A stretch of 64,000 nucleotides of DNA from contig OZ242180.1 in NCBI GenBank assembly GCA_965205485.1, positions 4,096,001-4,160,000 of the forward strand, given 5' to 3'. The stretch is from Candidatus Latescibacterota bacterium (lineage in GTDB: Bacteria > Latescibacterota > UBA2968 > GCA-2709665). The notes under the pieces were generated by a model. That model made no database searches and was not told the DNA's origin. It was given only the letters and a program-made list of their open reading frames with translations. This document shows positions 1 through 16,603 of the stretch, piece after piece. Made by a program: the position numbers and the translations under genes. Position 1 is the stretch's first letter. Each line of letters starts with the position of its first letter.

Positions 1-3000
1 CGTGCTCCGACAGGAAACGCGTCCGGACGCCGCCGGAGGTTCGCTGGTGCGATATGAGCTTCAGTTGCTTTTCCATTTCGGAAAAGCGCCGGTCGGGAAC
101 CACCGCGTCCCACACCCGGCCCGCCGCCAGGTTTCTCATCTCCGCCGGCGTTCCCGTATACAGTAGACGCCCCTGGTCCAGAACCGCCAGCCGATTGCAG
201 CTTCCCGAGATATCTTCCACGATATGCGTGGAAAAAATCACAATGCGCTCCTGACTTAACCTGGCGAGCAGGTTGCGAAACCGGATGCGCTCCAGCGGAT
301 CCAGCCCCGCGGTGGGCTCGTCCACGACGACGATCAGCGGGGCGTGCAGGAGCGTCTGCGCGATGCCGAGGCGCTGTTTCATTCCGCCTGAAAAAGAACC
401 GATCGGATCGTCCCTTCGTTCGATCAGATTGACCTGCTCCAGAGATTCGATCACCCGGGTCTCGCGGGTCTTCCGGTCCTTGAAGCCCTCGAGCAGCGCT
501 CTGTACTCCAGAAATTCGAATGCCGAAAGGTGTCCGTAGTTGCCGAAGTGCTGCGGCAGGTACCCGATCAGTCCGTGGATCGTACCCTTGTTCAGGATGT
601 TTCTACCGTCGATCAGGATGGACCCGTAGCTGGGTTCGAGCACCCTGCAGAGAATACGCATCAACGTTGTCTTGCCGGCGCCGTTCGGACCCAGCAGACC
701 GAACATCCCCCTGCCGATTTCCAGGTTGACGCCCGCCAGCGCTCGAAATTCCGGCCGGGGAATGCCTATAAGTGGAACGGCCGACGCCAATCGATAAAAC
801 CACCGTCGCGGCCGCGCAAAACGTCCTGGCAGGTTATCGGGACTGATCTCGCCCGTCCGCACCCTGTCGGCGAGCCGGCGTAACAGGCGATAGACGGCCC
901 AGATCCCGAACGAGGCAAGTGTGACCGATAGCAGGTCCAGCCGCCAGTGTACGTAGGCGACAAATGCCAGCGGGAGAGCGGCTTTGTGCAGCAGTTTGAC
1001 GATGCGGGCGAACGGCGCCGGCGGATGCCATTGGCGGAGTTCTCCGATACATCGACCCACGTGGGATACCATAAAGGCCAACGCCAGCACGTGCAGATAG
1101 ATCCAGATTTCGTCTTCGAAATAGGTCGTGAACAACGACAACAGCGCGAGCATTGGCAGTTTCCAGAAGAGGGCATCGCGAACCGCCCTGCGGTCCCGCG
1201 GATCCAGGCCCGTTTTCATCAGCCGCCCCCGCCGGCGCTCGTCACGCGCCCACTCCCGCACAAAGCGCCCGGGCGCGCCATAAACCTTGGTGAGGTTCCT
1301 CAGCTGAATGGCGTGCACGGCGCTCGACACGCGGCGGGCTGCGACTCGCGCGTGATGTACCCGTTGAACGATCCACACTGCTGCCAGAAATGAGCCCCAG
1401 ATGGGCAATATGGACAGGCTCGTCCAGAAAATGCTCTCATATCGGACGTAAATGCCATATCCGGCCGCGGCGGTCGCCAGCAGTGAGAACGTGACGCCGG
1501 CAAACCCGATGCCGTCCAGCCAGTCACCGATCTGATCCAGCCCCATATATACAACAGGAATCAGAATCAATGTGGACATCATGGAAACCGACAGACCTCC
1601 CAGCACCGTGATTGCAAACGGCGGCCAGATCTCAAAATCGCCGCCGAATTCCAGCGCGAGCGGGAGAACGCCGAGCAGCGTCGTGGCCGTCGTCATGAGG
1701 ATGGGTCGCAGGCGGGACCTCGCTGCGGTCAGTACAGCGCGTTCGCGGCGGTACCCGAAACGGGACCTGAGTACACCGACCGCGTCGATCAGGATGATCC
1801 CGTTGTTCACGGCAATACCCAGCAGGACGATGAAGCCCAGGAGCGCCATGGGACCCTCCTGCTGGCTGAGGCCCGTTCCTGACATCATCAGCGCCCAGCA
1901 GGAGCCGATGGCGGCGGGCGGAAGCGTACACAGGATGATGATCGGAGACGAGAGCGATTCAAAAAGCGACGCCAGAATCATATAGATCAGAACCGCGGCT
2001 ATTGCCATCATCCAATAGTAAATCATCTCCTCATGCGCCTCGATGATTTCGATTGAATAACCCTCTGGCAGCACCATATCCTGCAGTGTCGTGCGTACGA
2101 CCCGCCTCGCGAGTTCCAGCCGTGGCTGTGAATCCAGGACTTCCGAAGGAAACCTGTAGGAAACCACGAGCCGGCGGGCCTGGTCGGTCCGCAGCAGGCT
2201 GCTTCTGCCCTCGTCAGTCCGGACCCGCGCCACCTCGTCCAGAGGTACATACTGGCCGGCCTGGTTCAGAATACGCGTCCGACGGAATTCAGCCAGCCCG
2301 TAACGGTCGCGGTCCTCCTCTTCGATTGTTCGCACTTCAATGGGTATCTCGGTCGCGTCGGGCAGCAGAAACGGAACGGTCGTACGGAATCCGTCCCATC
2401 GGGTGTCGCCCATTGCGGCGAGGACCTCCTGCGCGCCGAGCCGCCGGTCGAACAGGGCGGCCGCATCGGGCAAAACCTGAACCTCGGGCGAACTTCGTTC
2501 GGCGTCGGCACGTACACTGTTGGCATCCACTTCCTCGAGTTCCTCGAGCCTGTACGACACGTCGTTCGCAATCATCGTCAGTATCGTAAAGTCATATCCG
2601 CGTATCACAACCTGCTCGTTCGGAGCGGTCCCGGTCAGATCGAAGCCACCCGAGCTGCGTCTCCGGCGTTGACCTATCCCCTGCCCGCGGCCGCCCCTCC
2701 CCGCCCTGGACCTGCGTTCGTATCCCACGACGCCACCCTGTACATTCTGAAGCTTCTCGTCCAGCAGTTCCTTGATTTCATCCAGCGAGATTCCGCCGGG
2801 CCGGTCGGAACGGTTGAGCAACATGACGGTTACGTCGGCCTCGGCCTCCCGGACAGACGTCGTAAACCGGTCCAGTCCGGACACGTCCCGAACGGATTCC
2901 TCCACCTGTTTCACCACGTCATCCGTGGCATCCAGCGTGGACCCTTCCGGCAGATTCACGTAGACCGTAAAGCGCGTCTCTTCCCGCCTTACCTGCTGTT

Positions 3001-4621
3001 GAAGCAGGTAGAAGAAGGCCAGAACGAGCGTCAGCAGGAGGGCGCCGCCCACCGCCAGGACCACCGATGTGCGGTGGCGCAAGGCGGCCTTCAGCAGCAG
3101 GGTATACCGTTCCAGCAGACCGCGGACGTCCGGCGGCTTCCGGACCTCACGGCTCAGTGCGCGGACGGCAAGCGCGGGAACCAGTGTAAGCGCAACCAGC
3201 AGTGACGCCAGAAGCGGAAACACCATGGACAACGCGAGTTCGCGCAGCAGGTCCCGTGCGTCGCTTTCGATAAACAGAACGGGCAGGAATGCGGTTACCG
3301 TGGTTGCCGTTGCCGCGACCACGGCGCGCCCGACTTCGGAAGCCCCGTCACGTGCAGCGTGAGCCGGCGATTTGCCTCGCTCGTAGTGTTTGAAGATATT
3401 CTCCATCACCACGATGCCGTTGTCCGCGAGCATTCCCATCGCGAGGGCAAGGCCGCAGAGCGACAGCACGTTGACGGACAGCCCGCCCGCGTACATAAGA
3501 TTGAAGGTCATCAGAAGTGAAATCGGAATGGCCAGCAGGAGAACCGAAACAAAGCGAAGGTTACGAAGAAACAGAAAGAGTACGATCAGACCGAGTACGG
3601 CGCCGACGACGGCCGCCTGCTTCAGGGTGGAGAGCGCCCCGGTCATCAGGTCGGCCTGGGAGGAACTCACGCCCAGTTCCACACCTTCACTTTCCAGGTC
3701 CCGGTTCAGGCGCCCGACGGTGGCTTCCACCGCAGCGGCCACTTCGATCAGATTCGCTTCGTCATCCTTCTGGATCCGTACGCCCACCGACGGTTTGCCA
3801 TTGACTCTGTGCCGGTCGGCCTGCTCCTGAAGGCCGTGCCCGATTCGGGAGATGTCGCCCAGCCGGAGCGTGCCGTCTTCGTTCACGACGAGATCGCGAA
3901 TCTGTCGCAGGTCCGTGAACTGTCCCTGAATACTCACCGAATAGGCCCTGTTCCCGTCGAATACCCGGCCCAGGTACTCACGCCTCCGGTTATGGCTGTT
4001 CAGTCGCGTCCGTACCTGTCCCGCCGAAAGGCCGTGCGCCTCCAGCAGGATCGGATCCAGGACGATTTCCACGGCGCTGCGGCGCCCGCCCAATACGGAC
4101 ACGTTCACGACGCCGTCGACAGACTCCAGTTCGGGCCGGATCTTTTCCTCCGTGAACTCACGCAACGGGTTCAGGTCCCAGTCGGCAAGCACGTGAAGCT
4201 CCATAATACTGCTGCTGAGGTCTGTCGAATCGAACCTCCGTACATCGGTCTGCGTGCGCTCGGGCAACGCAGGCTGCAATCGGTTCAGGTTGCTCTGCAG
4301 CTGAAGAAGGGCGAATTTCATATCCACGTCGGGGGCGTAGGATATCCTGATACCGCCCCTGTTGGCCGCCGCGAACGATTCCATCTCCTGAACGCCGTCG
4401 AGTTTTCCAATCTCTCCTTCCACCGGAATCAGCAGGTCTCTCTCAACCTGCTCCGGAGAGGCCCCCTGCAGCGTCAGCGTGACAAACACCTCAGGAAAGA
4501 TCAGCTCGGGAAAGAGCTGAATCGGAAGCCTCGTCCACGACACGACGCCCAATATGGCGAATGCAGCGAAGAACATGGACGTGGTCACCGGCCGCCGGAC
4601 CGCAAGATCGGGGAGAATCAC
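1..4621 (-). CDS. RND (AcrB-family) permease fused to extra TM segments and a C-terminal ABC ATPase; 3'-partial, >1540 aa
   Basis: Manual translation from GTG 4621 (GTGA overlap with upstream stop): MILPDLAVRRPVTTSMFF..., TM4 GMLADNGIVVMENI, TM10 GIAVNNGIILID, RLRPILMTT. The same frame continues to Walker A GPNGAGKT (691-668), signature FSGGM (394-380), Walker B VVVDEP and H-loop STH. Frame checked at 4621, 2740, 1309, 691 and 10. Its absence from the ORF track is consistent with no stop before the edge. Confidence 0.9.
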   Translation of the reverse strand, partial: MILPDLAVRRPVTTSMFFAAFAILGVVSWTRLPIQLFPELIFPEVFVTLTLQGASPEQVERDLLIPVEGEIGKLDGVQEMESFAAANRGGIRISYAPDVDMKFALLQLQSNLNRLQPALPERTQTDVRRFDSTDLSSSIMELHVLADWDLNPLREFTEEKIRPELESVDGVVNVSVLGGRRSAVEIVLDPILLEAHGLSAGQVRTRLNSHNRRREYLGRVFDGNRAYSVSIQGQFTDLRQIRDLVVNEDGTLRLGDISRIGHGLQEQADRHRVNGKPSVGVRIQKDDEANLIEVAAAVEATVGRLNRDLESEGVELGVSSSQADLMTGALSTLKQAAVVGAVLGLIVLFLFLRNLRFVSVLLLAIPISLLMTFNLMYAGGLSVNVLSLCGLALAMGMLADNGIVVMENIFKHYERGKSPAHAARDGASEVGRAVVAATATTVTAFLPVLFIESDARDLLRELALSMVFPLLASLLVALTLVPALAVRALSREVRKPPDVRGLLERYTLLLKAALRHRTSVVLAVGGALLLTLVLAFFYLLQQQVRREETRFTVYVNLPEGSTLDATDDVVKQVEESVRDVSGLDRFTTSVREAEADVTVMLLNRSDRPGGISLDEIKELLDEKLQNVQGGVVGYERRSRAGRGGRGQGIGQRRRRSSGGFDLTGTAPNEQVVIRGYDFTILTMIANDVSYRLEELEEVDANSVRADAERSSPEVQVLPDAAALFDRRLGAQEVLAAMGDTRWDGFRTTVPFLLPDATEIPIEVRTIEEEDRDRYGLAEFRRTRILNQAGQYVPLDEVARVRTDEGRSSLLRTDQARRLVVSYRFPSEVLDSQPRLELARRVVRTTLQDMVLPEGYSIEIIEAHEEMIYYWMMAIAAVLIYMILASLFESLSSPIIILCTLPPAAIGSCWALMMSGTGLSQQEGPMALLGFIVLLGIAVNNGIILIDAVGVLRSRFGYRRERAVLTAARSRLRPILMTTATTLLGVLPLALEFGGDFEIWPPFAITVLGGLSVSMMSTLILIPVVYMGLDQIGDWLDGIGFAGVTFSLLATAAAGYGIYVRYESIFWTSLSILPIWGSFLAAVWIVQRVHHARVAARRVSSAVHAIQLRNLTKVYGAPGRFVREWARDERRRGRLMKTGLDPRDRRAVRDALFWKLPMLALLSLFTTYFEDEIWIYLHVLALAFMVSHVGRCIGELRQWHPPAPFARIVKLLHKAALPLAFVAYVHWRLDLLSVTLASFGIWAVYRLLRRLADRVRTGEISPDNLPGRFARPRRWFYRLASAVPLIGIPRPEFRALAGVNLEIGRGMFGLLGPNGAGKTTLMRILCRVLEPSYGSILIDGRNILNKGTIHGLIGYLPQHFGNYGHLSAFEFLEYRALLEGFKDRKTRETRVIESLEQVNLIERRDDPIGSFSGGMKQRLGIAQTLLHAPLIVVVDEPTAGLDPLERIRFRNLLARLSQERIVIFSTHIVEDISGSCNRLAVLDQGRLLYTGTPAEMRNLAAGRVWDAVVPDRRFSEMEKQLKLISHQRTSGGVRTRFLSEH

Positions 4622-7600
4622 GCCGCACTCCTGTTTCTGAGCCGCTCGATCAGTTCGTAAACAACCGGAATCACCACCAGGGTCATCAACGTGGACGTGA
4701 CCAATCCGCCGATGACCGCCACCGCCATTGGCGCCCGCAGACGCGCGCCTTCACCCACACCCACCGCCATGGGCAACAGCGCGAGAATGGTTGTGGCGCT
4801 GGTCATCAGGATCGGACGGAGCCGATCCTGCGCACCCTGGAGTACGGCCGTTCTGACGTCGGACGCATTTCGCCGCAGCTGGTTGATGTGGTCCACCAGA
4901 ATGATGGCGTCGTTGACGGCGATGCCGCCCAGCATAATCGCTCCGATGAATGCCATCACGCCGAATGCCTCACCCAGACCCCAGAATGCGAACACCACCC
5001 CGATGCCGGCCAACGGCACTGTCAGCATGACGGTAAACGGATGCAGCAAAGACTCGAAGAGCGACGCCATGACCATGTAAACGAGCACGACGGACAACAG
5101 CAGGGCGAACTGCAGGCCTCCGAATGATTCGGCCCGCTCACGTTCCTCTCCGGTGATGGTTACACGATATCCGTGAGGAATGGCCATCTGCCCCACCGCC
5201 TGCCTGATCTGCGCCGCCGCCTGGCTCAAGACCATGCCTTCGGCCAGAAACGCGGATACCCTCCCCACCCTGCGCTGCCCGTCACGCAGGATTTCTCTTG
5301 GACCCTGGACCACGCGAAGATCGGCGAGATCTCCCAGCGTGAGCATCGCGCCGTCCGGACCGTCGATTCTGGCGTGTTCCAGCTCACGAAGGTCCACGTC
5401 TGCGAAGCCCACCCGGATGGTTCGCTCGCGCTGGTCTTTGGAGAGTTCGCCGGCTTCCTCCCCGCCCAGTCTGCGCTCGAGTTCACGCACGAGGTTCTGC
5501 GAGGTAAGGCCGAACGCCGCGGTGACATCCGGCCGCAACACGACGTCCAATTCGGGCTGGCCATCCTGAAAGCTCGTTCGGACATTATACACCGTCGACA
5601 ACACGTCCATGCGCTGTTTCAGATCTGCCGTCAGTTCCCGAAGCAGTACCAGGTTCTCGCCACTCACCTCCACCTGTACCGGTGCGGCGCCTCCACGTAC
5701 AAGTCCTTCCAACGCAGATTTATGGAGTCGATAGTTAACTTTGATATTCGGCACGTCCAGGAGGGCCGCATCCAGTGCGGCGGTGAGTTCGGTGACACCA
5801 CGACGGCCCGCTTGCGGGCCCAGGACGACCGTCAGTTCGGCCCGGTTCGGACCCGTGGGCTCTCCCACGGCCGTGAACCGGTTCGGATCTGTTCCCACCC
5901 GCAGGTAGATGTGCAGGGCTTCCTCTCCGGCAACCGCCTGCGCAATAGCCGCGACGCGTCTCCCCACCCTGTCTGTTGACTCGAGTCTCGTGCCCTCCGG
6001 CATCGCGAGGTCCACGTGGAGTACACCCTCGTCTTCCGTGGGAATGAACGACGTATGGAGGGACGTGGCCATATGGAAGGCCGCCACAAGGCAGGCGATC
6101 AGTACCGCTATCGTGCGGCCCTTGCGGTTGAGCGACGCATCCAGAAACCGTCTGAACGTCCGCGCCCCGGCGACCCCCGTGGACCCGCGCGGATACCGCC
6201 TGAACAGCCGTGCGGTCATCATGGGGACCACCGTCATCGCCACGGCGAGAGATGAAACCAGTGAAAACGCCACGGTCCAGGCCTGTTCCTTGAAGAGTTC
6301 GCCCGCCAGCCCTTGAAGATACACGATGGGAAGAAACACGGACACCGTCGTCAGCGTGGAAGCCAGTATCGCGACCCCGACCTCGCCGGCGCCCTTGACG
6401 GAGGCTGCTGCGGCTGTTTCACCACTTTCGATATGCCGGTAGATGTTCTCAATTACGACAATGGCGTTATCCACCAGCATGCCGGCGCCGAGTGCGAGAC
6501 CGCCAAGGGTCATTACGTTCAACGTCAACCCCTGGAAATACATCAGCGTGAACGTGGCGAGAACGGAAATCGGAATGGCAAGGCCAATCACCAGCGTTGC
6601 AGTCCATTGCCGGAGCGCGGCAAGCAGCACGCCCACGGCCAGAAACGCGCCGATGACAGCCGCCTCTTCAACTTCGCTTACCGCGCGTTCGACAAAGCGT
6701 GCCTGGTTTTCCACCACCGTAAACCGGATGCCGGCCAGATCGGCTTCCAGGCTCCCCAGTTCCTGCAGTACCCCGTTCACCACTGAAGAGGTATTCGCGC
6801 CGGCTTCCTTGTAGACCGAAAGTCCTACGCACTCCATGCCGTCCAGACGGACGATGGTTTCCCGTTCCTTATACTGGAGGGCCACGGTACCCACGTCGCT
6901 GACCGTGACCGGCACGCGCTGAGTCGATGCGTTTTCTCCGCCGTTCGAAGATTCGCCGCTGCGTTCGCCGACAACCAGGTCGTTCACGTCCGCCAGGTCG
7001 GTCAGCCGTCCCAGGCCCTTTACCAGATAGGATTGCTGGCCGTCCTTCAGCGTTCCTCCGGAGACATCCGAATTCGCTTCACGAATCCGCGAGACCACCG
7101 TTGCGGAATTGACGCCGAACGCTTGCAGGAGATAGGAATCCAGTGTGACGCGGATCTCCTTTTCGGCTCCCCCTTCGATTTCAACCGAAGCCACCCCCGA
7201 CAGCCCCTCGAGCCTGGGCCGGATGATCGTCTCCACACTGCCCAGCAATTCATCTGGATCCTGCCAGTCCGCCCCCGAAACAGCCAGACGCATCACCGGC
7301 AATGCCTGCGGGTCTTCCTGCGTAACGTCCAGACTCGTGATATCGGGGTCCGATGCGTACCGCGCCACTTTCTTCTGCACGTCGAGAACCGCGAAATCCA
7401 TGTCCGCATCCCACTCGAACTCCGCGATCACCACGGCCTGCCCGGAGCGGGACACGGAATGTACGCGTTTCACGTGCCGTACCGTACCGATGTCCCCTTC
7501 CAGGCGCTGCGCGTACCGTTCCTCCATCTCCCGGGGCGTCTTTCCGGGAAAACGCAGGTCGACGGTGATCACGGGAGAACGCAGGTCGGGCAACAGGTCC

Positions 7601-7701
7601 ACATCCAGCCGGTCCAGCGAGATCCAGCCGAGGAGCGCTACCGCCAGCGTCGCCATCGCGACCGTCACGGGATATTTCGTGGAAAATTCGGGCAATGACA
7701 T
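4618..7701 (-). CDS. RND efflux permease (AcrB/AcrD/AcrF family)
   Basis: ~1027 aa with GMLVDNAIVVIENI and RLRPILMTS. Start moved to ATG 7701 (MSLPEF) because the upstream extension lies in the MITE. Confidence 0.95.
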   Translation of the reverse strand: MSLPEFSTKYPVTVAMATLAVALLGWISLDRLDVDLLPDLRSPVITVDLRFPGKTPREMEERYAQRLEGDIGTVRHVKRVHSVSRSGQAVVIAEFEWDADMDFAVLDVQKKVARYASDPDITSLDVTQEDPQALPVMRLAVSGADWQDPDELLGSVETIIRPRLEGLSGVASVEIEGGAEKEIRVTLDSYLLQAFGVNSATVVSRIREANSDVSGGTLKDGQQSYLVKGLGRLTDLADVNDLVVGERSGESSNGGENASTQRVPVTVSDVGTVALQYKERETIVRLDGMECVGLSVYKEAGANTSSVVNGVLQELGSLEADLAGIRFTVVENQARFVERAVSEVEEAAVIGAFLAVGVLLAALRQWTATLVIGLAIPISVLATFTLMYFQGLTLNVMTLGGLALGAGMLVDNAIVVIENIYRHIESGETAAAASVKGAGEVGVAILASTLTTVSVFLPIVYLQGLAGELFKEQAWTVAFSLVSSLAVAMTVVPMMTARLFRRYPRGSTGVAGARTFRRFLDASLNRKGRTIAVLIACLVAAFHMATSLHTSFIPTEDEGVLHVDLAMPEGTRLESTDRVGRRVAAIAQAVAGEEALHIYLRVGTDPNRFTAVGEPTGPNRAELTVVLGPQAGRRGVTELTAALDAALLDVPNIKVNYRLHKSALEGLVRGGAAPVQVEVSGENLVLLRELTADLKQRMDVLSTVYNVRTSFQDGQPELDVVLRPDVTAAFGLTSQNLVRELERRLGGEEAGELSKDQRERTIRVGFADVDLRELEHARIDGPDGAMLTLGDLADLRVVQGPREILRDGQRRVGRVSAFLAEGMVLSQAAAQIRQAVGQMAIPHGYRVTITGEERERAESFGGLQFALLLSVVLVYMVMASLFESLLHPFTVMLTVPLAGIGVVFAFWGLGEAFGVMAFIGAIMLGGIAVNDAIILVDHINQLRRNASDVRTAVLQGAQDRLRPILMTSATTILALLPMAVGVGEGARLRAPMAVAVIGGLVTSTLMTLVVIPVVYELIERLRNRSAA

Positions 7702-7715
7702 CGTATCGGCCCTTA

Positions 7716-7927
7716 GAAGCTGCCTTAAAATTCCCAGCGGTCTTCGCACGGCTGCAAAAGCGCCGGTCGGCGTTGGTCAAACCCACCCAAGAGTGGCGAG
7801 GGGCGCGCAGCCACGATACATTGGAGATGGGTGGATTTTCCCGTCGGCGCTGCGCGCCCCTCGCGCCTCATAACCGGCACTTTTTCGCTCGCGCTCGGGA
7901 ACTCACCGGTAATTTTAAGACAGCTTC
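7716..7927. mobile_element. MITE copy 1 (212 bp)
   Basis: TIRs GAAGCTGCCTTAAAATT / AATTTTAAGACAGCTTC, TTA direct repeats at 7713-7715 and 7928-7930, internal similarity to copies 2 and 3. Confidence 0.85.
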
Positions 7928-8198
7928 TTATTGAATGAGCGTTGGTTGCTTTGGCTCAGTAACCGTGATTAACATGAATGACCTCGATCGAAGGAGCAAA
8001 CTCCCGCAAGCAAATGTGACACCGCCCGGTAACGAGGTTGGTCGGGGGTGAAAAAACCCCTCCGGAAGGCCCACACGCTGTCCCTGGGCCCCAGAGGGGT
8101 CCAATCGAGAAAGCTCACGATGATTCGTTCGCTGCGGACGGTATCTCTCGAGTCGGCAATGGACTGTCAGGACGACGGACGTTCGTAGCGCGTATTCA

Positions 8199-9281
8199 TC
8201 ACTGCCGCCCCGCCGCGTCCTCCCCGGTTACCCGCACGCGCGTACGGGACCGCAGCGTCTCGTAGTTGCTGGTAATGAGGCGCTCGCCCGGTTCAAGCCC
8301 TTCGAGAATCTCGACCTGCTCCGGTCCCTCCAATCCCAGCCTTACGTCGCGCATCTGCGCCCGCCCCTCCTCCTCGACGAACACCACCTTGCGATTCTGG
8401 CGCGTCAGGACGAAACGTCGCGGGATCACCACCGCATCCTCGTGAGACTCTGTGACAATCTCTGCCTTCACGAACATCCCCGGCCGTAACATCAGGTTAG
8501 GATTTTTCACCGCCCCCACCACCCGGAACGTACGCGTCGCCGGATCGATGGCCGGGTCGACCACCTTGACGGTCCCCAGAAACCGTCGGTTGGGCAATGC
8601 GTAGTTCTCCACGCGCAAGACCTGCCCCGGTGAAACGGATACAATATATGCGTTCGGAACCTTGAGATCGACGAGTACCTGGTTGTAGTCCATCACCGTT
8701 GCAATGGTCGTGCGGGCCTCCACCATCGTACCCTCGGTAATATCGGCCAATCCTGTCAGAAAGCCGGTGATTGGCGTCCGAATCGTCGTCTTGGCGATCT
8801 GAACGAGAGCGTCTTCATAGTTGGATTCGGCCTCGGCGAGGGCCCGGCGCGCTTCGTCCAGATCCTTCACCGTGCTCAGTTTACGGTCGACAAGAACTTC
8901 CTGCTCGCTCAATGTTTGCTTCGCGACGGCGCGCGCAAGATCGCGGGATTCCAGACGGGCGTTTACGACAAGCTCCTTGTTCACAAGCCGGGCGATTACC
9001 TGGTTCCGGGTCACCCGCATTCCCTCCGTCGCCCGTCCTCCGACGCCCCGCGCCACATATTGGATAATTCCCTCGACCTCGGTCTGAATACGGGCTTCTC
9101 TGAAGGGCCGGAGCGTGCCCGTGGCCGCCACCGTCGCCTCCATGGTGTCCAGATGCACCGCCTGAACCGTTACGGGGACGGTCAGATCCACGGACCGCTG
9201 TTCGGTCTGCCCGCCGCATCCGGCCAGAATGGCAACAGCGGTGAATACCATACCATAACCGATCAGGACTCTTTTGTTCAA
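8199..9281 (-). CDS. RND periplasmic adaptor (membrane fusion protein), lipoprotein
   Basis: Lipobox LAGC; TTIRTPITG, VDPAIDPATRTF and LRPGMFV MFP motifs; GAGGTG RBS before TTG. Confidence 0.93.
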   Translation of the reverse strand: MNKRVLIGYGMVFTAVAILAGCGGQTEQRSVDLTVPVTVQAVHLDTMEATVAATGTLRPFREARIQTEVEGIIQYVARGVGGRATEGMRVTRNQVIARLVNKELVVNARLESRDLARAVAKQTLSEQEVLVDRKLSTVKDLDEARRALAEAESNYEDALVQIAKTTIRTPITGFLTGLADITEGTMVEARTTIATVMDYNQVLVDLKVPNAYIVSVSPGQVLRVENYALPNRRFLGTVKVVDPAIDPATRTFRVVGAVKNPNLMLRPGMFVKAEIVTESHEDAVVIPRRFVLTRQNRKVVFVEEEGRAQMRDVRLGLEGPEQVEILEGLEPGERLITSNYETLRSRTRVRVTGEDAAGRQ

Positions 9282-9325
9282 GTTTCACCTCATAAAAGGG
9301 TTATAACTCGCTGTTCACCATTGGA

Positions 9326-12300
9326 TTACCAACCTCTTCCACGCGTTTGTCCTCCGCCGCTCCGGCTGCCGCCCCCTCGCCCCCCGCGGTCGCCGCCCCG
9401 ACGGCCCCGACCGAAGTTCCACGTCGGAAGATCTTCTTCATATACCTCTTCCGGGTGGTCGGGATCTACGTACCTCCAGCGCACCGCATCGGCATAGAGG
9501 CGCCCGTTTGCCCGGTCGGACAGTTCGACACGGGCCAGCTCACCTCCCTCGAAACGGTACCGACCCATCACGTTCCAGCCGCCCTTGAGCTTGTCCGCTT
9601 CGACCGCCAGTGTATCCACCTCGCCGCCGTGGCCCACCGCCAGACTGAATTCCGTGGCCATACGCAGACGCCTGGCGAACCGGGGTTGAACGAAATAATA
9701 GTAGACGTCGTAATCCCCGCTGTGCGGCAAGCGGGCCGTCCAGACCGCCGGTTGCGCGCCGTCGCCGGGTTTCTTCCACCTGTAGTTGGTTTCATACCGG
9801 CCGAAAGAAAATGGCATCTGTCGTTCCTGCCAGTTGTCCCCTTTCAACTGCGGTCGGAGATAACGCCGCACCCTCCGGACCGGCATTTCGAAGCCTTCGT
9901 CGTCATTGTCCACGATGATCTCGGTCAATCCCGTCTCGTCTGGGGCGACCTCTCTCACGTAGGTCGTGGCGGAACCGTCCATCGGCTGCTCGGGTATGCG
10001 CAGCGGCGCCATCAGGACGCGGCGGTTTCGTGCAAAAAACGGCTCGACGCTGATTCTCGAAGGCCGTTCCCAAAGGATCAAGCCCACCTCCACTTCCTGC
10101 CCGCCTTCTATCTCAACGCCCTTCAACGCCTCGTCCTCGCTCCCCATCGCTCGAATCTGGACGAATCCGCGCCCCGGCTCTCCGTTTCGGATCCGCACGA
10201 CGACCTGATACACCATCATCCCCCACCCATCGTCCACTTTGTACGCCTTTGCCCTGGTGAGCGTATATCCCGGTACCTGGGTGCCGTGCAGCCAGTCTCT
10301 GACGAGGCGATGCAGGTTGGGTCGTTCCGCCCGGCTGGAGGAATCTCCGACAGCCGCACGTTCGAACGACTCGAAGTTGACTGCCGCGTGCCGGTTTGAC
10401 TCCTCGAATCCGCTGACCACGTCTCTGAACGTTTCGTCACCCACCACGGCCTGCATCATCCCGAACATGGAGGCGCCCTTGGCGTCGACGACCGCCCGGT
10501 AGAGTTCCGCGTCGGCATCCGGATCCAGCTCAGCAAAGGAACGCTGACGCATCTTTGACGTTACCGTATCCCACGAGACGCCTCGCGCGCCCCTGTTGCG
10601 CCGGAAAAGACCCCGGAACCTGCCCCGCCGCGAATACAGGCTTTGCTGCAGGCTGGTCTCGAGATGTTGTTGAATATGGACGGGCATTCCGCGCTTGAGC
10701 AGGGAGTAGTGTTCGCCTTCGAAGCCCTGGTTGAAGGACCAGAGGTGCGCCACCGGACTCCGGTAGATGCCGCTCTGAGACGATTCCCGCGCAAGAAACG
10801 TGCGCAGAACCGCGCTGACCAGCAGATCCCGCTTGATCCTCGCGGGGTCGTCGTTTCGTCGCCGCCGCCGCTGCATCCATTTCAGGCGCCGCTGCAGATT
10901 GAGCCGCATCAGCACGTCCTCTTCCAGCATCAGCACGCCCGGCTGCACGAGTCCACCGGCTTCCTCCCATCCGTCGTAATACCATTGTACCTGGAATGGC
11001 ACTTCCACAACCGACAGGCGTTCGTAGGGATAGGCCAGGCCGGTTTCCTGTTCAACGCTGTCCAGGATTTCGCCCAGCGTTTCGAGGGCGTCGTCCCTGG
11101 CGTCTTCGAAGAAGGTGACCTGTCTGGCATGGGCCGGATGAACGTAAACGGCGCATTGGATATTATGGATTTCGGCCTGGAAGACACGGTAGACGCCGGC
11201 GTTGAGCGAGAAAAAAGGTACAGGGCTTCGCGCCTTCCACGAATGGACCTCCCGATCGCCCTCCGCCTTCCGGCTGACCGGCATCCCCTGGGTTATAACC
11301 TCAAGTCCCGCGGGAAGAGAGATATCCAGATCCGCGGTGGCGAAGGACACGGGTCTGCCATCCTCGTGTCCGTAGTCAACGCCCGGCGAAGGATACCACC
11401 TGCTGCGGGGTGGGAGGAATACGGAATTCCCGCGAATCCAGGCGGTCAGATCGCCCTTTCTGCCCGGCCCCGCGCGCCGCTTCTGCAGACGCCTCGCATC
11501 CGGATGGCGCTTCAGATCGAATCCGCTGAGGTCAATCGAACCGTCGTATACGAACGCCAGCGTCGCCGTGCTGTCAGGCTGGAGCGTTCGGGCGACCCGC
11601 ACGACGGCGGTTTCTCGCCGCCAGTTCACAGCAGCGTCCACTCCGTTTTGCACATTCACGGATCGCAGTCTCAAACCCGGGTTGAGACTGAAAACCAGCG
11701 TGTCGAGCGGAACGGAATGAGGGTTGGAAACGCGCAAAACCGCAGTGCCCCGAAGGGGCGTCCGGTCTGACGCAAGGTCCAGGTCGAGCGTGTAATGCGT
11801 TACCGCCACGGTTGGCTGTCCGGCGTATCTCTCATGAACTTCCAGCTGCGCTGTCCTGTATGCGATGTCCGAGGCGTCGCTGTTTTCAATATACAGGTAG
11901 AGGCCCAGCGCGGCGACGAAACCACCGGCAGTCATACACCGGCCGAACCTGCGCCAGGCCCGGGACTGAGGCAGCCGCGGATACCGGTCGATTGACAATC
12001 CGAAGAAAAACAGGGCAAGCAAGGTGTAGAAGAACCGGAGTTCCACGACGCGCCGAATATCGCCGAGACCGAGCATATCCGAGTAGAACACCGGGGCGAA
12101 GAATGCGCCGAAGTCGTAGACGCCGCCGTATCGGCGTCCGAGGAACAGGAGGACGATCAGCACGTACGCGATGGTCAGCACGGTCACCGCGGCCTGCCGG
12201 CGCAGCACCGCCCCGAGGAAAAACGTAAGGGCGGACATGTAAATCAGCCCCGGCAGGTTCAGCAGAAGCAGGTACGTCAGATAGGGTCGAATCGTAAACG

Positions 12301-12724
12301 GGGCGCCCGTAATGCTGATTTTGGCCGCCTGCACGCCAAGGCTGAGTACCAGCACGATCAGGCTCAGCGTTATCAGGGCGCCCAGTACCCCCAGGTATTT
12401 GCCCATGACCAGTTCGGCGGTAGACAGCGGCCGCGCCGCAACCACCTCGTAGATTCCCGCACGTTCATCCGCCGCCCTGAAATCTCCCACAATAAACGCG
12501 ATCACCACGGTCTGGAGGAGACTGTAGACGAAAAAGGGCATATAGGCGCCGATTCCGCTCACAGATTCGAACTCGACGCCTCTGGATTCGGCGATCGCCA
12601 CGCCGATACCCAGGACAACGGGAATGAGCACGCCGATACCGCCCAGGATGCGAAACCGGATCGTACGCATCAGCATTTTGCGCTCGTATCTGGCTACAGA
12701 CAATATGGTGAAGACCGTATTCAT
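9326..12724 (-). CDS. ABC-2-type permease fused to an M1-aminopeptidase-like domain (no HEXXH seen), a golvesin/xanthan-lyase C-terminal-like domain and an RG-rich tail
   Basis: N-terminal VARYERKML plus ~7 hydrophobic segments and ARPLSTAELVMGK. HYTLDLDL, FSLNPGL and YPYERLSVVEVP are M1-like. IIVDNDD...GWNVMGRYRF...LYADAVRW is golvesin-like. ATG 12724 overlaps the ATPase stop (ATGA). Confidence 0.8.
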   Translation of the reverse strand: MNTVFTILSVARYERKMLMRTIRFRILGGIGVLIPVVLGIGVAIAESRGVEFESVSGIGAYMPFFVYSLLQTVVIAFIVGDFRAADERAGIYEVVAARPLSTAELVMGKYLGVLGALITLSLIVLVLSLGVQAAKISITGAPFTIRPYLTYLLLLNLPGLIYMSALTFFLGAVLRRQAAVTVLTIAYVLIVLLFLGRRYGGVYDFGAFFAPVFYSDMLGLGDIRRVVELRFFYTLLALFFFGLSIDRYPRLPQSRAWRRFGRCMTAGGFVAALGLYLYIENSDASDIAYRTAQLEVHERYAGQPTVAVTHYTLDLDLASDRTPLRGTAVLRVSNPHSVPLDTLVFSLNPGLRLRSVNVQNGVDAAVNWRRETAVVRVARTLQPDSTATLAFVYDGSIDLSGFDLKRHPDARRLQKRRAGPGRKGDLTAWIRGNSVFLPPRSRWYPSPGVDYGHEDGRPVSFATADLDISLPAGLEVITQGMPVSRKAEGDREVHSWKARSPVPFFSLNAGVYRVFQAEIHNIQCAVYVHPAHARQVTFFEDARDDALETLGEILDSVEQETGLAYPYERLSVVEVPFQVQWYYDGWEEAGGLVQPGVLMLEEDVLMRLNLQRRLKWMQRRRRRNDDPARIKRDLLVSAVLRTFLARESSQSGIYRSPVAHLWSFNQGFEGEHYSLLKRGMPVHIQQHLETSLQQSLYSRRGRFRGLFRRNRGARGVSWDTVTSKMRQRSFAELDPDADAELYRAVVDAKGASMFGMMQAVVGDETFRDVVSGFEESNRHAAVNFESFERAAVGDSSSRAERPNLHRLVRDWLHGTQVPGYTLTRAKAYKVDDGWGMMVYQVVVRIRNGEPGRGFVQIRAMGSEDEALKGVEIEGGQEVEVGLILWERPSRISVEPFFARNRRVLMAPLRIPEQPMDGSATTYVREVAPDETGLTEIIVDNDDEGFEMPVRRVRRYLRPQLKGDNWQERQMPFSFGRYETNYRWKKPGDGAQPAVWTARLPHSGDYDVYYYFVQPRFARRLRMATEFSLAVGHGGEVDTLAVEADKLKGGWNVMGRYRFEGGELARVELSDRANGRLYADAVRWRYVDPDHPEEVYEEDLPTWNFGRGRRGGDRGGRGGGSRSGGGQTRGRGW

Positions 12725-13626
12725 GATCCTTGCACCCCTGCGTCCCGTTCCGGATTCTCCATACCCATGAAATACACGTACGCGTCTTCGAGGTTCGGCG
12801 GAACCGGTTCGGAGTTTGCCGGCGGCTGGCCATCGCCCACAAATCTGAGGTCCATCAGGCCGCCGTCCACCGAGATCGTCACGACCAGAAACTTCCGGGA
12901 TATCGATTCGAACTCGGCGTCGTCCGCCTGCAGGCGCCACGTCTTTCCATCGGCGCGATCGACCAGTGCCCCGGGCGATCCCCTGTAGACGATCCGTCCT
13001 GCATTCAACACCGCCAGATCATCGCAGGTACTTGAAATATCGCCCACGATGTGTGTCGAAATCAGGATGGCCCGGTCTCGACTCAATTGGGCAAGGATTC
13101 CCCTGAAACGAATGCGTTCTTCCGGATCGAGTCCCACGGTGGGCTCATCCACAACCAGGATTTCCGGATCGCCCACAATGGCCTGTGCAATCCCGAGGCG
13201 CCGCATCATCCCCCCGGAAAATGTGCCGGTCCGGCGGTCCCGCACGTCGTAGAGCCCCACGTTCTCCAGCGCATCGCGCACGCGCCCTTTTCTGCCGTTC
13301 CGTCGCCGTCCGGCCGCCAGCCGGTCCATATAGTCCAGAAACTCCCACGCCGTCAGCTGTGGATACGAACCGAAGTGCTGGGGAAGATATCCCAGACTGC
13401 GACGAACTTCGGAGCGATTCCGCTGCAGGTCCCACGCTCCCACGCTTACATGGCCGGACGTTGGCGCCATCTGAGTTGAGAGAATCTTGATGAGCGTGGT
13501 TTTTCCCGCGCCGTTCGGTCCAAGCAGCCCGAAGGTCCCCTTGCCGATCTCGAGGTCCACGTTGTCCAGAGCGGGCACGGTCCCCTTTGGATAGATTTTC
13601 GTCAATCCGGTCGCAACGATACGCAT
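12721..13626 (-). CDS. ABC transporter ATP-binding protein (ABC-2/CcmA-like)
   Basis: [24 protein letters not shown]. Start moved to ATG 13626 because the upstream extension runs through the MITE. Confidence 0.95.
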   Translation of the reverse strand: MRIVATGLTKIYPKGTVPALDNVDLEIGKGTFGLLGPNGAGKTTLIKILSTQMAPTSGHVSVGAWDLQRNRSEVRRSLGYLPQHFGSYPQLTAWEFLDYMDRLAAGRRRNGRKGRVRDALENVGLYDVRDRRTGTFSGGMMRRLGIAQAIVGDPEILVVDEPTVGLDPEERIRFRGILAQLSRDRAILISTHIVGDISSTCDDLAVLNAGRIVYRGSPGALVDRADGKTWRLQADDAEFESISRKFLVVTISVDGGLMDLRFVGDGQPPANSEPVPPNLEDAYVYFMGMENPERDAGVQGS

Positions 13627-13639
13627 TGCCAGCCCCTTG

Positions 13640-13826
13640 GAAGTTGTTTTAAAATTACCGGCGAGTTCCCGAGCGCGAGCGAAAAAGTGGCGGTCAAGGG
13701 GGAAAATCCGCCCAATTTTAATGTATCGTGGCTGCGCGCCCCTCGCCACTCTTGGGTGGATTTGACCAACGCCGACCGGCGCTTTTGCAGCCGTGCGAAG
13801 ACCGCTGGCAATTTTCAAACAGCCCC
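13640..13826. mobile_element. MITE copy 2 (187 bp, inverted relative to copy 1)
   Basis: Ends GAAGTTGTTTTAAAATT / AATTTTCAAACAGCCCC, flanks TTG/TTA, long near-identical internal stretches to the reverse complement of copy 1. Confidence 0.8.
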
Positions 13827-13943
13827 TTATCCGTGTTCCGGGGGAAAACCGTACACTGTGCATTAGACCGGTCAGCGGCGAAGATCGTTCCGCAAGGATT
13901 CGCTGGGGATGCGTGGGGAACCGCCCATTTGCGGCCGATGCAT

Positions 13944-15191
13944 TCAGGGGTTGTCCGATTCCGTTGACGAGACGCGACCCACGCGCCGTCCGGCTGTCAG
14001 TTCCACCTTGACGTGGCGCGCATCCAGCTCGGGCATTGCGGGGCACGGCAACACGTGCACCGTTTCCTTCGGCACCGCCTGAGAGACGATTTCCGGGAAC
14101 GCCGCGGCGGTTTCCGGCGAACTGACATAGGCAAACGCCAGACAGATTTCTCTCCGTGTAAGTGACAGCCGTTCCAGGACGGTTGCCAGCTGTTCCGCAA
14201 CCAGTTCCGCCTCCCGGCGCGGGTCCGTGCCGCCGGGCGCCCGCAGCTCGCCCACCTGGATCAATTCCCAGCCCTGGGCGCGGCAGCGGCGAATCCTCAA
14301 GGCGCCGTCATCCGGGATTTCCGAAGGAATCCGCGTCTCCGAGTGCCGCACCTCGTTATCGTTGTCGGGCAGGACTCCCATGACCTGTATTTCCGCGTAC
14401 AGGCGGGGCGGATCGCCGAAACACCGGCTGTCCGACATCATCACCACGGGTCGCGGACGACCTGACCAGCGCCGGTTGACTTCCTTACGGATGAGGCGCG
14501 CGATCCTCGTACAGTGGGCGAACGGACGGAGACGCACGACGTCGCTCAACGAGCCGCCCCCCTCCTCGAAAACGTCCTGGATGAGGTCGAACACGTGCCG
14601 GATCTGGCGTTCCGGTTGTCCTTCGAACAGCGGATTGATGCCGTCGTCCCATGCCACTACGCCCGACAGATGGATCTGGCGGGCGCCGCCGAAGCGCGTC
14701 ACGACCGCGGGGGCAAGCGCCATGAATTCGGTATCGTACAATGACTCCGGACGCCAGATGGCCTGCTGGAACGCCGCGCCGGGTCTTGGCACATAACCCA
14801 CTGCCTGGATACACGTGGAGAGGCGGGTCCTCGAATGCGCCCAGCCAAGCGTCGTGATCGCGGCGCGATACCCGCGGCTGAACCGGGCCCGCCGTTCACC
14901 GCGCATGTGGGTGCCGTCGTACCGCTTGTTGTGCAGAACCGTCCATTCGGCGAAGGAATCAAAACCCCCGCCAGACACGGTGGCGACCTCCGTCATCGTG
15001 TCGCAGAGCGCCACATTCTGGGATTCGGACCATTCGTCGCGCAATGCCTCGCCCGCTGCCTCCGACCATGTTGAGCCCTGGACGCCGTGGTCGGGCAGCT
15101 GCAAACCCAGTTGATTGAGATCGATACGCACGGCGTCGCCCCAATCCGTGTGCCGGACCCGCATGTGTCGCCGTACGTCCGGGTGAGACAT
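13944..15191 (-). CDS. RidA/YjgF-superfamily multi-domain protein
   Basis: Central IHLSGVV...QIRHVFDLI...GGGSLSDVVRLRPF...AEIQVMG unit; AAGGAG RBS before ATG 15191. Confidence 0.6.
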   Translation of the reverse strand: MSHPDVRRHMRVRHTDWGDAVRIDLNQLGLQLPDHGVQGSTWSEAAGEALRDEWSESQNVALCDTMTEVATVSGGGFDSFAEWTVLHNKRYDGTHMRGERRARFSRGYRAAITTLGWAHSRTRLSTCIQAVGYVPRPGAAFQQAIWRPESLYDTEFMALAPAVVTRFGGARQIHLSGVVAWDDGINPLFEGQPERQIRHVFDLIQDVFEEGGGSLSDVVRLRPFAHCTRIARLIRKEVNRRWSGRPRPVVMMSDSRCFGDPPRLYAEIQVMGVLPDNDNEVRHSETRIPSEIPDDGALRIRRCRAQGWELIQVGELRAPGGTDPRREAELVAEQLATVLERLSLTRREICLAFAYVSSPETAAAFPEIVSQAVPKETVHVLPCPAMPELDARHVKVELTAGRRVGRVSSTESDNP

Positions 15192-15265
15192 CAGTGAACT
15201 CTCCTTGTGCCGGCACCCTTCGTGCGCAGCCGGAAAGACCGTGAACCGACGGGATCGGTGAAGGC

Positions 15266-16603
15266 TCAACTCCAGGGGAACGGACTGTTGGATACCGGAT
15301 GGAGCCTTCCCTCGGCATAGCGGGAAAAGCGGAACGGCGCCAGCAGACGCGTGGACTCGCCGAGGAGTTCCTCGGCCACCAGCCCGCCCACGCCGATCAT
15401 CTTGTATCCGTGATTCGAGTCCGCAATGAAGTAGCAGTTCTGGTGAAACCGGTCGAATACCGGGAAACTGTCGGGTGTAAACGCGCCGATGCCTCCGGAC
15501 GGCTCTTTCTTGAAGAGCGATGACTTTCCTTCAAACCGCTTGTGACAGAATGCCAGTGCGGAACACCACTGGTGTGCGAACCGGTCTCCGACGATGAAAT
15601 CGGGGGACTCCGGACCATAGGGATCCACCGCCACCTCGTCCGGCGGTCGTTCCACCCTGTAAGGCATCGCCCCCCCTTGTACACCCCCGAAGTGGAAATC
15701 GGGCTTGTAATAAATGCCCCACAAACGATCGGTAATCAGCGAACCGTCGACGTCCGAATACAGCGGCGCATCGGTGTCGAGATGAATCACAGGGGGCATG
15801 CTGCCGTCGTTGGTCTTGAGATAGTTGGGGTCGACGCCCAGCGTACCTTCCTGCAAACACCAGTAACTCCACATCGGGATATCGTGGTGCATCGTCCCGT
15901 CCGGACTCTTTATGCTCACCGACGCGGGCAGACCCAGCATATCCCAAAGCAGCTTCGCCCAAGGGCCCGCTGCGATAACGACCTCGTCCGTCCGGATCAC
16001 GCCGCGATCCGTTTCCACCGCCGAGACAGCCCCTCCGTCGAACCGGAATCCGGTGACCGTGACGCCTTCCAGAATCCTGACGCCCTCGTCTTTGGCCTTG
16101 TCGGCCAGGCCCGCCATCGACGCGCGATTGTTGGCGTACCCCCCTCGTTTTTCGTGAAGAACGGATGTGATTCCCTTCGCCTGCCAGTCGTGAAACAGGC
16201 GCCGCATATACTTCATGCAGTCTGCATCGCCTTCTATAAACTCCGATTCGTAACCGATCTCGCGCTGCTGTTGTGCGATGTTGGCGACGTCCTCATGCAT
16301 GGACTCGGGGCTGATCTGCATGTAGCCGACGGGATGGTAGCTGAACGCCTCCGGATCGGTCTCCCACAAATCGACGCTGTGCGCCATCAGTTCGCGCATG
16401 GCCGGCTGGAAGTAGTTATTGCGGATGACGCCGCAGGCGATGCCGGAAGCGCCCGCAGCCACGCCCTTCTTGTCCACGATCAGCACCTCGGTTCCGGCAA
16501 CGCCCCGCCGCCTCTTCAGCTCCTTCGCCAGGTGATAGCCGGTACTCAGACCGTGAACGCCGGCGCCGATAATCAGATATGGCGTATGTTCGGGTATGCG
16601 CAT
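15266..16603 (-). CDS. FAD-dependent oxidoreductase, DAO family (sarcosine oxidase beta / N-methylglutamate dehydrogenase MgdA-like)
   Basis: IIGAGVHGLST dinucleotide fold; GASGIACGVIRNNYFQPAMRELM; FTPDSFP; SNHGYKM. Confidence 0.8.
   Translation of the reverse strand: MRIPEHTPYLIIGAGVHGLSTGYHLAKELKRRRGVAGTEVLIVDKKGVAAGASGIACGVIRNNYFQPAMRELMAHSVDLWETDPEAFSYHPVGYMQISPESMHEDVANIAQQQREIGYESEFIEGDADCMKYMRRLFHDWQAKGITSVLHEKRGGYANNRASMAGLADKAKDEGVRILEGVTVTGFRFDGGAVSAVETDRGVIRTDEVVIAAGPWAKLLWDMLGLPASVSIKSPDGTMHHDIPMWSYWCLQEGTLGVDPNYLKTNDGSMPPVIHLDTDAPLYSDVDGSLITDRLWGIYYKPDFHFGGVQGGAMPYRVERPPDEVAVDPYGPESPDFIVGDRFAHQWCSALAFCHKRFEGKSSLFKKEPSGGIGAFTPDSFPVFDRFHQNCYFIADSNHGYKMIGVGGLVAEELLGESTRLLAPFRFSRYAEGRLHPVSNSPFPWS

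Follow-up and report, generated by a model that had tools for sequence, protein, structure and literature searches.

Can a permease of the resistance-nodulation-division (RND) superfamily and an ATP-binding cassette (ABC) ATPase be parts of one polypeptide and, if so, what would that ATPase power? The question is raised by the left end of a 64,000-nucleotide stretch of contig OZ242180.1 from a Candidatus Latescibacterota bacterium. This whole stretch is called the window, and positions below are its own unless a locus is named. Here, a long minus-strand open reading frame (ORF) encodes an RND permease, denoted RND-B, that is followed in frame by a nucleotide-binding domain (NBD), denoted NBD2. 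In the 2-4621 product, the Pfam profile ACR_tran (PF00873) matches aa 5-1027 over profile positions 3-1019 of 1021 (E 1.4e-184), and the score of 616 bits, against a cut-off of 28, places the protein in the RND superfamily. In the same frame, ABC_tran (PF00005) matches aa 1297-1438 (E 4.6e-26, 92.5 bits against a cut-off of 25). A preliminary description of this DNA had proposed a complete AcrB-type body continuing in frame into an NBD, and the two profiles confirm it. The ORF so described is real but truncated by the window's edge: the frame extends a further 93 nt to the left, where its last 30 codons and its stop lie, and the complete fusion protein in the genome comprises 1,570 aa (L006:9909-14621).

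Both halves have the expected parts. In the RND part, hydropathy marks segments at aa 10-37, 328-493, 516-545 and 864-1032 that long polar loops separate, as in the AcrB-type layout, where twelve transmembrane helices (TM) form two 1+5 sets and two of the periplasmic loops are large. The ATPase contains a Walker A motif (aa 1311-1319, window 665-691), a Q-loop (window 542-559), the signature FSGGMKQR (aa 1410-1417, window 371-394), a Walker B motif IVVVDE that ends in E1435 (window 311-334) and the H-loop residue H1466 (window 212-235); the Walker A, FSGGM signature, Walker B and H-loop named in the preliminary description all lie where it had put them. In structure comparisons with Foldseek, the ATPase fold is closest to TM_1403 (4yer), NosF (7osf), LptB and ABCA proteins (E 3e-22). 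Walker A K1317, Q1357, S1411-G-G, D1434-E1435 and H1466 are invariant in 124 of 124 homologues. Such invariance of the catalytic residues argues that an active ATPase is being maintained in the fusion.

Conservation of the fused reading frame

An open frame that joins two gene families might arise from an assembly error, a sequencing error or a recent stop loss, and the window is a single assembly. We therefore place first the evidence on the frame itself. A homologue search with aa 1030-1570 returned a list of 120 cluster representatives, every one of which carries PF00873 together with PF00005. Most of these proteins (108) measure 1,486-1,646 aa, and the other 12, the majority from short contigs, have 881-1,398 aa; identity among the 120 reaches down to 38% over linker and ATPase. 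An exhaustive HMMER search covered 1.84 billion cluster representatives (50% identity level), and among the best 150 examined were 27 proteins of 1,550-1,601 aa and a shorter class (n=7, 1,389-1,451 aa) in which the match is limited to the ATPase. Within the same phylum, 55 of 101 sampled genomes have the whole module of aa 1030-1570 at E<=1e-100. The surrounding open frame is stop-free and at least 1,542 aa long in 49 of these 55 carriers, in three the assembly is fragmented and the frame short (471, 643 and 1,217 aa), and three have one in-frame stop within the match (G044, G077 and G042). From species genomes of other phyla in GTDB, 80 loci were kept: 26 encode the whole protein in one frame, 3 are cut by contig ends and the remaining 51 match the ATPase only. 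The fusion is found in the cultured Bacteroidota Marivirga tractuosa, Draconibacterium mangrovi and Parabacteroides massiliensis, and also in a Zixibacteria metagenome-assembled genome (MAG); by their source labels, closer relatives are MAGs of Gemmatimonadota, Latescibacterota, Acidobacteriota, KSB1 and Calditrichota.

Independent contigs also cover the junction. Those of the public runs X1 and X4 span 704-1652, which holds the whole junction, with 0 differences and no indels, X1 possibly being the sample behind the assembly; run X6, from another study, contains a diverged relative that differs over the junction by substitutions only. The preliminary description had asked for reads over 700-1600 and named a stop or an indel between 1545 and 750 as fatal to its proposal, and neither was seen in the contigs of X1 and X4 that tile this region. 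Its second reservation, that homologues might always encode the RND permease and the NBD separately, fails with the fusion of all 120 listed homologues from several phyla. The in-frame stops in three carrier genomes and the fragmentation of related genes in two other-phyla loci (L008 and L019) are what might still speak for an artefact. However, hundreds of clusters across several phyla retain the fusion together with a conserved linker, and the contigs of two samples are free of indels; on the strength of homologue conservation, frames within the phylum and public contigs, we rejected the artefact, whose probability we regard as negligible. In a comparison of 27 related loci from other phyla, made with the window proteins as queries, each Bacteroidota RND resembles its counterpart in this genome more closely than it does the other paralogue, so that duplication and fusion predate the split of the phyla. 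The fusion is real and ancient.

Three side observations concern the same DNA and its relatives. The locus from a Marivirga tractuosa strain (L008) has two genes, the second RND permease and a large ABC permease described below, each split in two, and in that from an uncultured Prolixibacteraceae MAG (L019) almost all of the related genes are fragmented; these broken frames are frameshifts, pseudogenes or assembly errors. Metagenome runs labelled as sponge or marine, X6 among them, contain near-identical or related copies of window 400-2000, and no RNA data set was listed among the public runs. In window 616-723, the Walker A region, summed contig depth rises more than 100-fold with many loose ends, a jump that stems from the conserved P-loop DNA of many other metagenome members and does not reflect the gene itself.

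The junction and a probable partner for the fused ATPase

The interdomain stretch between the two Pfam domains comprises 270 residues and is conserved in the consensus of the homologue alignment. We modelled the module of aa 1030-1570 (541 aa) with AlphaFold2 (AF2) from 124 homologues, with a mean predicted local-distance score (pLDDT) of 92.2 and a predicted template-modelling score (pTM) of 0.83. Hydropathy and AF2 agree on the layout: TM13-14 directly after TM12 of the RND part (module helices H2-32 and H35-68), a basic stretch, ATPase strand 1, a helix, TM15-18 (H115-135, H142-166, H173-199 and H202-226) and the rest of the ATPase from about aa 1292. In this model, ATPase strand 1 and the ATPase remainder are separated by some 175 aa, TM15-18 sit between strand 1 and strand 2, and the interdomain stretch is not a loose linker; rather, the ATPase is predicted to be interrupted by a four-helix membrane insertion. 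From this layout, 18 membrane helices are predicted in the fusion protein. To our knowledge, no other ABC ATPase has a comparable membrane insertion. The idea that TM13-18 are themselves a hidden ABC-2 permease was rejected: hhalign assigned a probability of 0.3% to a relation with the small permease family described below, the Foldseek matches of the module cover the ATPase part only, and a protein atlas search with aa 1030-1292 gave no usable match. A second, shorter class of fusions (1,389-1,455 aa; L029:9944-14308 and P0169, P0175, P0184, P0187, P0196, P0240 and P0254) is devoid of TM15-18. Its members have a short amphipathic stretch after TM12 and an insert of about 50 aa after ATPase strand 1, with no membrane helices.

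A candidate partner for the ATPase is encoded directly after it. The operon consists of six genes, in the order NBD1, TMD1big, adaptor, RND-A, RND-B::NBD2 and TMD2 (TMD, transmembrane domain). The last of these, outside the window, encodes a 240-aa ABC-2-like membrane protein, and its GTG start overlaps the stop of the fusion gene. By hhalign, the TMD2 family aligns with the membrane domain of the larger permease TMD1big over 177 columns (E 4.7e-5), which makes the two distant ABC-2 paralogues, and the alignment includes a loop that resembles a coupling motif (GERDRNTLETLF in TMD2 against ADERAGIYEVV in TMD1big). When the module was predicted in complex with TMD2, the interface score ipSAE reached 0.69, 0.69 and 0.71, compared with 0.00 for the best of three controls; the partner's pLDDT was at least 75 and the runs shared at least 95% of their contacts. 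In calibration, the mark for this predictor was reached by 116 of 157 solved pairs and by 2 of 215 mismatched pairs. Predicted contacts on the ATPase side involve the Q-loop and helical subdomain (module residues 293-300, 320-354, 393 and 397), and those on the TMD2 side the N-terminal helix (6-24), the GERDRNTLETLF coupling loop (85-101) and the C-terminus (234-238). The prediction supports binding of TMD2 to the fused ATPase.

We consider it probable, with some reserve, that the fused ATPase powers TMD2, and hence that an ABC-2 exporter is tethered to RND-B of a pump built from two RND paralogues. We favour this reading because TMD2 has a dedicated, overlapping gene, is never seen without the fusion and is predicted to make contact in the groove of the ATPase. 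The preliminary description had suggested instead that ATP might energise or gate the RND permease. This suggestion is not supported, since the fused ATPase has its own permease, with a coupling helix predicted to occupy the canonical groove. In its most explicit form, closure of the ATPase would be passed through TM13-18 to RND-B, with TMD2 as an accessory. That would account for the covalent link and for six extra helices that are conserved and confidently predicted and for which no confident TMD2 contact offers an explanation, and it might draw on the state of the proton relay in both RND proteins.

In AcrB, the relay residues are D407 and D408 in TM4, K940 in TM10 and R971 in TM11. RND-B has D400-N401 in TM4, N939-N940 in TM10 and R972 in TM11. 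Relay columns were counted over 165 RND-B and 26 RND-A sequences from an alignment to MdtB (9lyq_B). The first TM4 aspartate is kept in 191 of 191 sequences and the TM11 arginine in 189 of 191, in both paralogues. By contrast, the position of the second aspartate, AcrB D408, is Asn in 188 of 191 (162/165 RND-B, 26/26 RND-A), and that of the TM10 lysine, AcrB K940, is Asn in all 191 (165/165 and 26/26). Instead of the full relay of the hydrophobe/amphiphile efflux-1 (HAE-1) family (Asp-Asp in TM4, Lys in TM10, Arg in TM11), only the first Asp and the Arg are retained. As the relay is altered in both paralogues, it is a trait of the RND clade and not of the fusion.

These counts cut both ways for an ATP-driven or ATP-gated RND permease. 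The asparagines at the D408 and K940 positions fit it, whereas the retained aspartate and arginine are compatible with proton coupling and the unfused RND-A carries the same altered residues. Moreover, the groove of the ATPase is predicted to hold the TMD2 coupling helix, and the short-form fusions do without TM15-18. We therefore hold this alternative to be unlikely. The fuller claim, that ATP drives or gates RND-B through the six helices and that the pump is energised by ATP, with or without the proton gradient, appears to us slightly less likely again. If it were true, ATP acting on an RND protein would mean a kind of energy coupling that the RND fold is not known to have, and would be categorically new.

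A cassette of six genes and its possible workings

Is the link between the RND and ABC parts an accident of one gene, or does it belong to a larger unit? In the comparison of 27 loci, 26 show adaptor, RND-A and fusion in that order, and in 24 a small permease directly follows the fusion, the three exceptions being L029 (small permease elsewhere in the cluster), L039 (contig end) and L074 (locus end). In every locus that extends far enough, genes for the free ATPase and the big permease are located upstream. In 26 of the 27 loci, a gene for an outer-membrane factor is placed between those for the big permease and the adaptor, and Pfam assigned it to the OEP family in both loci examined in this way; the Bacteroidota and the Zixibacteria MAG have the same gene order as here with this factor as a seventh gene. 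Within the phylum, TMD2 was matched in 54 and TMD1big in 57 of the 101 genomes, next to the 55 with the fusion module, and every listed TMD2 match adjoins a fusion match, with none in fusion-free genomes. The cassette is thus fixed, and its components travel together: a pair of RND paralogues, a single adaptor and two ABC-2 modules. With this cassette and the fusion, physical coupling between the RND permease and the ABC module is built into the polypeptide, and the earlier proposal of an RND complex physically coupled to an ABC module is upheld to that extent: the coupling is covalent in a conserved protein. Locus L029 differs in its gene order and has a distant gene similar to outer-membrane factors after the fusion.

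The larger permease merits a separate description. What had been called an ABC-2 permease does have an ABC-2 membrane domain, but the protein is in fact 1,132 aa long, with a large extracytoplasmic part and a Golvesin_C domain. With 30.2 bits, the ABC-2 membrane region falls just short of its Pfam cut-off of 31.6; Pfam also finds Golvesin_C and a weak Peptidase_M1 match (E 9e-4). In the AF2 model (42 sequences, pLDDT 79.5, pTM 0.74), an N-terminal helical membrane domain is followed by a large extracytoplasmic body and, at the C-terminus, by the Golvesin_C domain and a low-confidence tail rich in glycine and arginine. Foldseek aligned the extracytoplasmic body with M1 aminopeptidases over about 650 columns (E 8e-20 to 1e-16) at about 10% identity. 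M1 zinc aminopeptidases are recognized by the zinc site HEXXH and the exopeptidase motif GXMEN; among 22 TMD1big orthologues, HEXXH occurs in none and a GxMEN-like string in one. As only the fold is shared and HEXXH is missing, the M1-fold domain is probably not a peptidase and, judged by these motifs, probably serves for binding or scaffolding.

Put together, these parts would form an envelope export machine. NBD2 and TMD2 would make up an ATP-driven ABC-2 exporter that is permanently tethered to RND-B; RND-A and RND-B would associate in one pump of two RND paralogues; NBD1 and TMD1big would act as a second ABC-2 unit with a non-catalytic M1-fold domain in the periplasm; and the shared, single adaptor would complete the assembly. 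Substrate would pass from the ABC module or modules to the RND pump and adaptor, presumably in the direction of export; we infer this passage, which the preliminary description had also considered, from the covalent joining of the two parts, a gene order that stays fixed and the presence of just one adaptor. Since ABC ATPases work as dimers, the composition of the RND trimer would matter. A trimer of one RND-A and two RND-B would hold one NBD2 dimer. With two RND-A and one RND-B instead, NBD2 could form a pair with NBD1, and TMD2 with the big permease. MdtBC, in which the ratio is B2C, is by analogy the nearest precedent for mixed RND trimers.

The second of these compositions leads to a different arrangement, in which a single heterodimeric ABC transporter (NBD1 with NBD2, TMD1big with TMD2) is docked on an RND trimer that contains one RND-B. 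The two ATPases are paralogous at 46% identity, the permeases are distant paralogues and the parts co-occur in essentially the same genomes (the 55, 54 and 57 of 101 given above). In L029 the adjacency is swapped, with NBD1 beside a TMD2-like gene and a TMD1big-like gene beside the fusion, and one fused ATPase per trimer would remove the problem of an odd number. On the other hand, both ATPases keep fully canonical catalytic motifs, whereas heterodimers commonly have a degenerate site, and TMD2 in the 101 genomes always accompanies the fusion. NBD1/TMD1big-like pairs also stand side by side far from any RND fusion (G083:C1:4436686-4440902 and G033:C1:1462581-1466782), so that this pair can be self-standing. 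G007 and G018 each carry a second big-permease-like copy apart from the cassette, one with in-frame stops and the other in two pieces, and these too count against a heterodimer. On balance, we see the heterodimer as possible, yet rather improbable.

A plainer account is that the fusion secures only the co-assembly or equal dosage of two independent pumps, with neither hand-over of substrate nor energetic coupling. By their motifs, the ATPase, TMD2 and RND parts each appear self-sufficient, and fusions of operon neighbours often reflect mere co-assembly. However, the fusion, the six helices and the gene order are kept as far as Bacteroidota at about 35% identity, and one adaptor gene serves the whole cassette. 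This deep conservation and the single adaptor argue for one integrated machine, and we doubt that co-assembly alone explains the fusion.

Several points weigh against the exporter tethered to RND-B and against the machine drawn around it. On an RND homotrimer, the three fused ATPases could not all pair. The match of TMD2 to Pfam ABC2_membrane_2 and _3 (E 0.0019, 18 bits) lies under the cut-off of 27.2. The complex with TMD2 was predicted from custom alignments with one copy per chain, whereas ABC transporters act as dimers. Because contacts of the kind predicted are the usual geometry of ABC-2-type transporters, the passing score may reflect likeness to solved transporters of that type and not the specific pair. 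In the same prediction, none of the confident contacts joins TMD2 to the six extra helices. The absence of the second aspartate and the TM10 lysine from both RND paralogues, as read from the alignment, leaves room for another kind of energy coupling, and the single in-frame stops in three carrier genomes run counter to a maintained frame. Finally, no OEP homologue occurs in this window or its left flank, and of 8 OEP genes elsewhere in the genome none is close to the factor of the other-phyla cassettes (best E 2.4e-5, 18% identity). Leftward extension of the contig, which the preliminary description had advised in search of an outer-membrane factor, yielded the small permease and then a convergent cdaA-like gene, but no such factor.

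Positions of the cassette features are collected in Table 1. As the preliminary description had it, five genes are co-oriented in the window and, judged by coordinates, two stop/start pairs overlap. The minus-strand ORFs run over 2-4621, 4618-7749, 8199-9281, 9326-12940 and 12721-14046, and their translations point to probable true starts at 7701 (RND-A), 12724 (TMD1big) and 13626 (NBD1). The overlaps are those of the RND-A stop with the GTG of the fusion gene (4618-4621) and of the NBD1 stop with the TMD1big start (12721-12724). The convergent cdaA-like gene lies beyond TMD2, and the operon therefore ends there. The adaptor reaches 186.9 bits in TIGR01730, over its cut-off of 94.9, and RND-A reaches 738 bits in PF00873; RND-A and RND-B are 33% identical.

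Table 1. Features of the RND-ABC cassette, in window coordinates
Feature	Position	Strand	Basis
RND-B::NBD2 fusion gene	2..4621	-	One frame with Pfam ACR_tran and ABC_tran; the window holds codons 1-1540
AcrB-type RND body, aa 5-1027	1541..4609	-	Pfam; alignment to MdtB 9lyq_B; column counts
TM13-14, aa 1031-1097, then basic cytoplasmic stretch	1331..1531	-	Hydropathy; AF2
First ATPase beta-strand and A-loop tyrosine (IQLRNLTKVYG), aa 1105-1115	1277..1309	-	Sequence; AF2
TM15-18, predicted four-helix insertion within the ATPase, aa 1144-1255	857..1192	-	AF2; kept across the alignment of 124 homologues
ATPase core, aa 1292-1540 here and to 1570 in the complete protein	2..748	-	Pfam; motifs; Foldseek
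RND-A, second RND permease	4618..7749, probable ATG 7701	-	Pfam
Periplasmic adaptor (membrane fusion protein), lipoprotein-type N-terminus (…LAGC)	8199..9281	-	TIGR01730
TMD1big, 1,132 aa: ABC-2 membrane, M1-aminopeptidase-fold and Golvesin_C domains	9326..12724	-	Pfam; AF2; Foldseek
NBD1, free ABC ATPase, 301 aa	12721..13626	-	Pfam; NCBIfam
45-nt repeat copy in sense orientation, its end 22 nt before the NBD1 ATG	13648..13692	-	Repeat search

The adaptor and RND-A are spaced unusually here: some 450-500 nt separate the adaptor stop from the RND-A start (window 7750-8198), whereas in the Bacteroidota loci they overlap or are no more than about 150 nt apart. The gap carries a copy of a 45-nt repeat (7875-7919, + strand), antisense to the operon and with no ORF of at least 80 aa after it. 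Neither a consensus sigma-70-type promoter nor a terminator was found in window 7600-8300, and window 1-16000, including the repeat, gave no Rfam match at E<=0.1. The repeat (CGGCAC…TTTTAAG) has 91 copies in the genome at up to 6 substitutions, and a BLAST-type search listed 41 matches at 88-100% identity. Downstream of 78 of the 91 copies, by raw count, an ORF of at least 80 aa in the same orientation starts within 300 nt, most often (35 of these 78) at a distance of 10-39 nt. By its placement, the repeat may be a shared promoter or leader element, for this operon too.

Relation to known export systems

How does the cassette compare with characterized transporters? Its RND half recalls MdtABC-TolC and MuxABC, in which, as here, one operon has two tandem RND permease genes and one adaptor gene; MdtB (9lyq_B) is the best solved relative of the RND part (E 1e-84), and a further parallel is the outer-membrane factor gene within the cassettes of other phyla. 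Known Mdt and Mux subunits have no ATPase and no extra C-terminal helices, both of which are present in the fusion, and the relay of AcrB and MdtB has D-D and K where the cassette RNDs have D-N and N. Against NCBIfam models, the fusion scores 331 bits for MdtB (cut-off 1584), 356 for MdtC (cut-off 1774) and 175 for AcrB (cut-off 2150), with RND_permease_2 the best at 511 against 1250, all short of the HAE-1 subfamily cut-offs. HAE-1 pumps are rarely heterotrimers, MdtBC being one example given in a review (PMC8277102).

The ABC half is nearest to ABC-2 exporters of the DrrAB, GldAFG and NosDFY kind. The best families of the fused ATPase are DrrA (TIGR01188; 167 bits against 312) and GldA (TIGR03522; 158 against 403), both under cut-off, and its best folds include NosF and TM_1403. 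A shared feature is the permease gene directly after that for the ATPase; the predicted contact, through an N-terminal interface helix and a coupling loop of a permease of the six-helix type, would be another. In those exporters the ATPase is separate, whereas here it is covalently joined to an RND permease and is interrupted, in the model, by the four-helix insertion. MacAB-TolC also combines an ABC transporter that has a large periplasmic domain with an adaptor and an outer-membrane factor; TMD1big, with its large extracytoplasmic domain, and the cassette adaptor are comparable to the first two. In MacB, according to the same review, an N-terminal ATPase is fused to a four-helix permease of a different fold (PMC8277102). 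The cassette permeases differ in being ABC-2-like, with a periplasmic domain of M1-aminopeptidase fold. This fold is common to IRAP, ERAP1/2 and aminopeptidase N; unlike these zinc enzymes, the TMD1big domain lacks HEXXH and is joined to ABC-2 membrane and Golvesin_C domains.

No part of the cassette reaches the cut-off of a named NCBIfam RND or ABC subfamily. Automated annotation names one half of the fusion, either as 'efflux RND transporter permease' or as 'ATP-binding cassette domain-containing protein'. No paper on an RND permease fused to an ABC ATPase was found by full-text search outside subscription journals and TCDB, or in the passages of PMC8277102 consulted, in keeping with the preliminary description, which knew of no characterized complex of this kind. 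The parts belong to known superfamilies; what is new is an export cassette of tripartite type to which an ABC module is covalently attached.

RND and ABC pumps are usually presented as alternatives, one engine proton-driven and the other ATP-driven; here they are joined in one conserved polypeptide. A further ABC unit and a single adaptor also belong to the cassette, accompanied in other phyla by an outer-membrane factor. The fusion offers an example of an ABC ATPase that is, by prediction, interrupted by membrane helices, and it flags a widespread export cassette hidden behind annotations of one half or the other. With the partners fixed at a defined distance and in a defined ratio, the cassette makes it testable how exporters of the inner membrane pass cargo to RND pumps.

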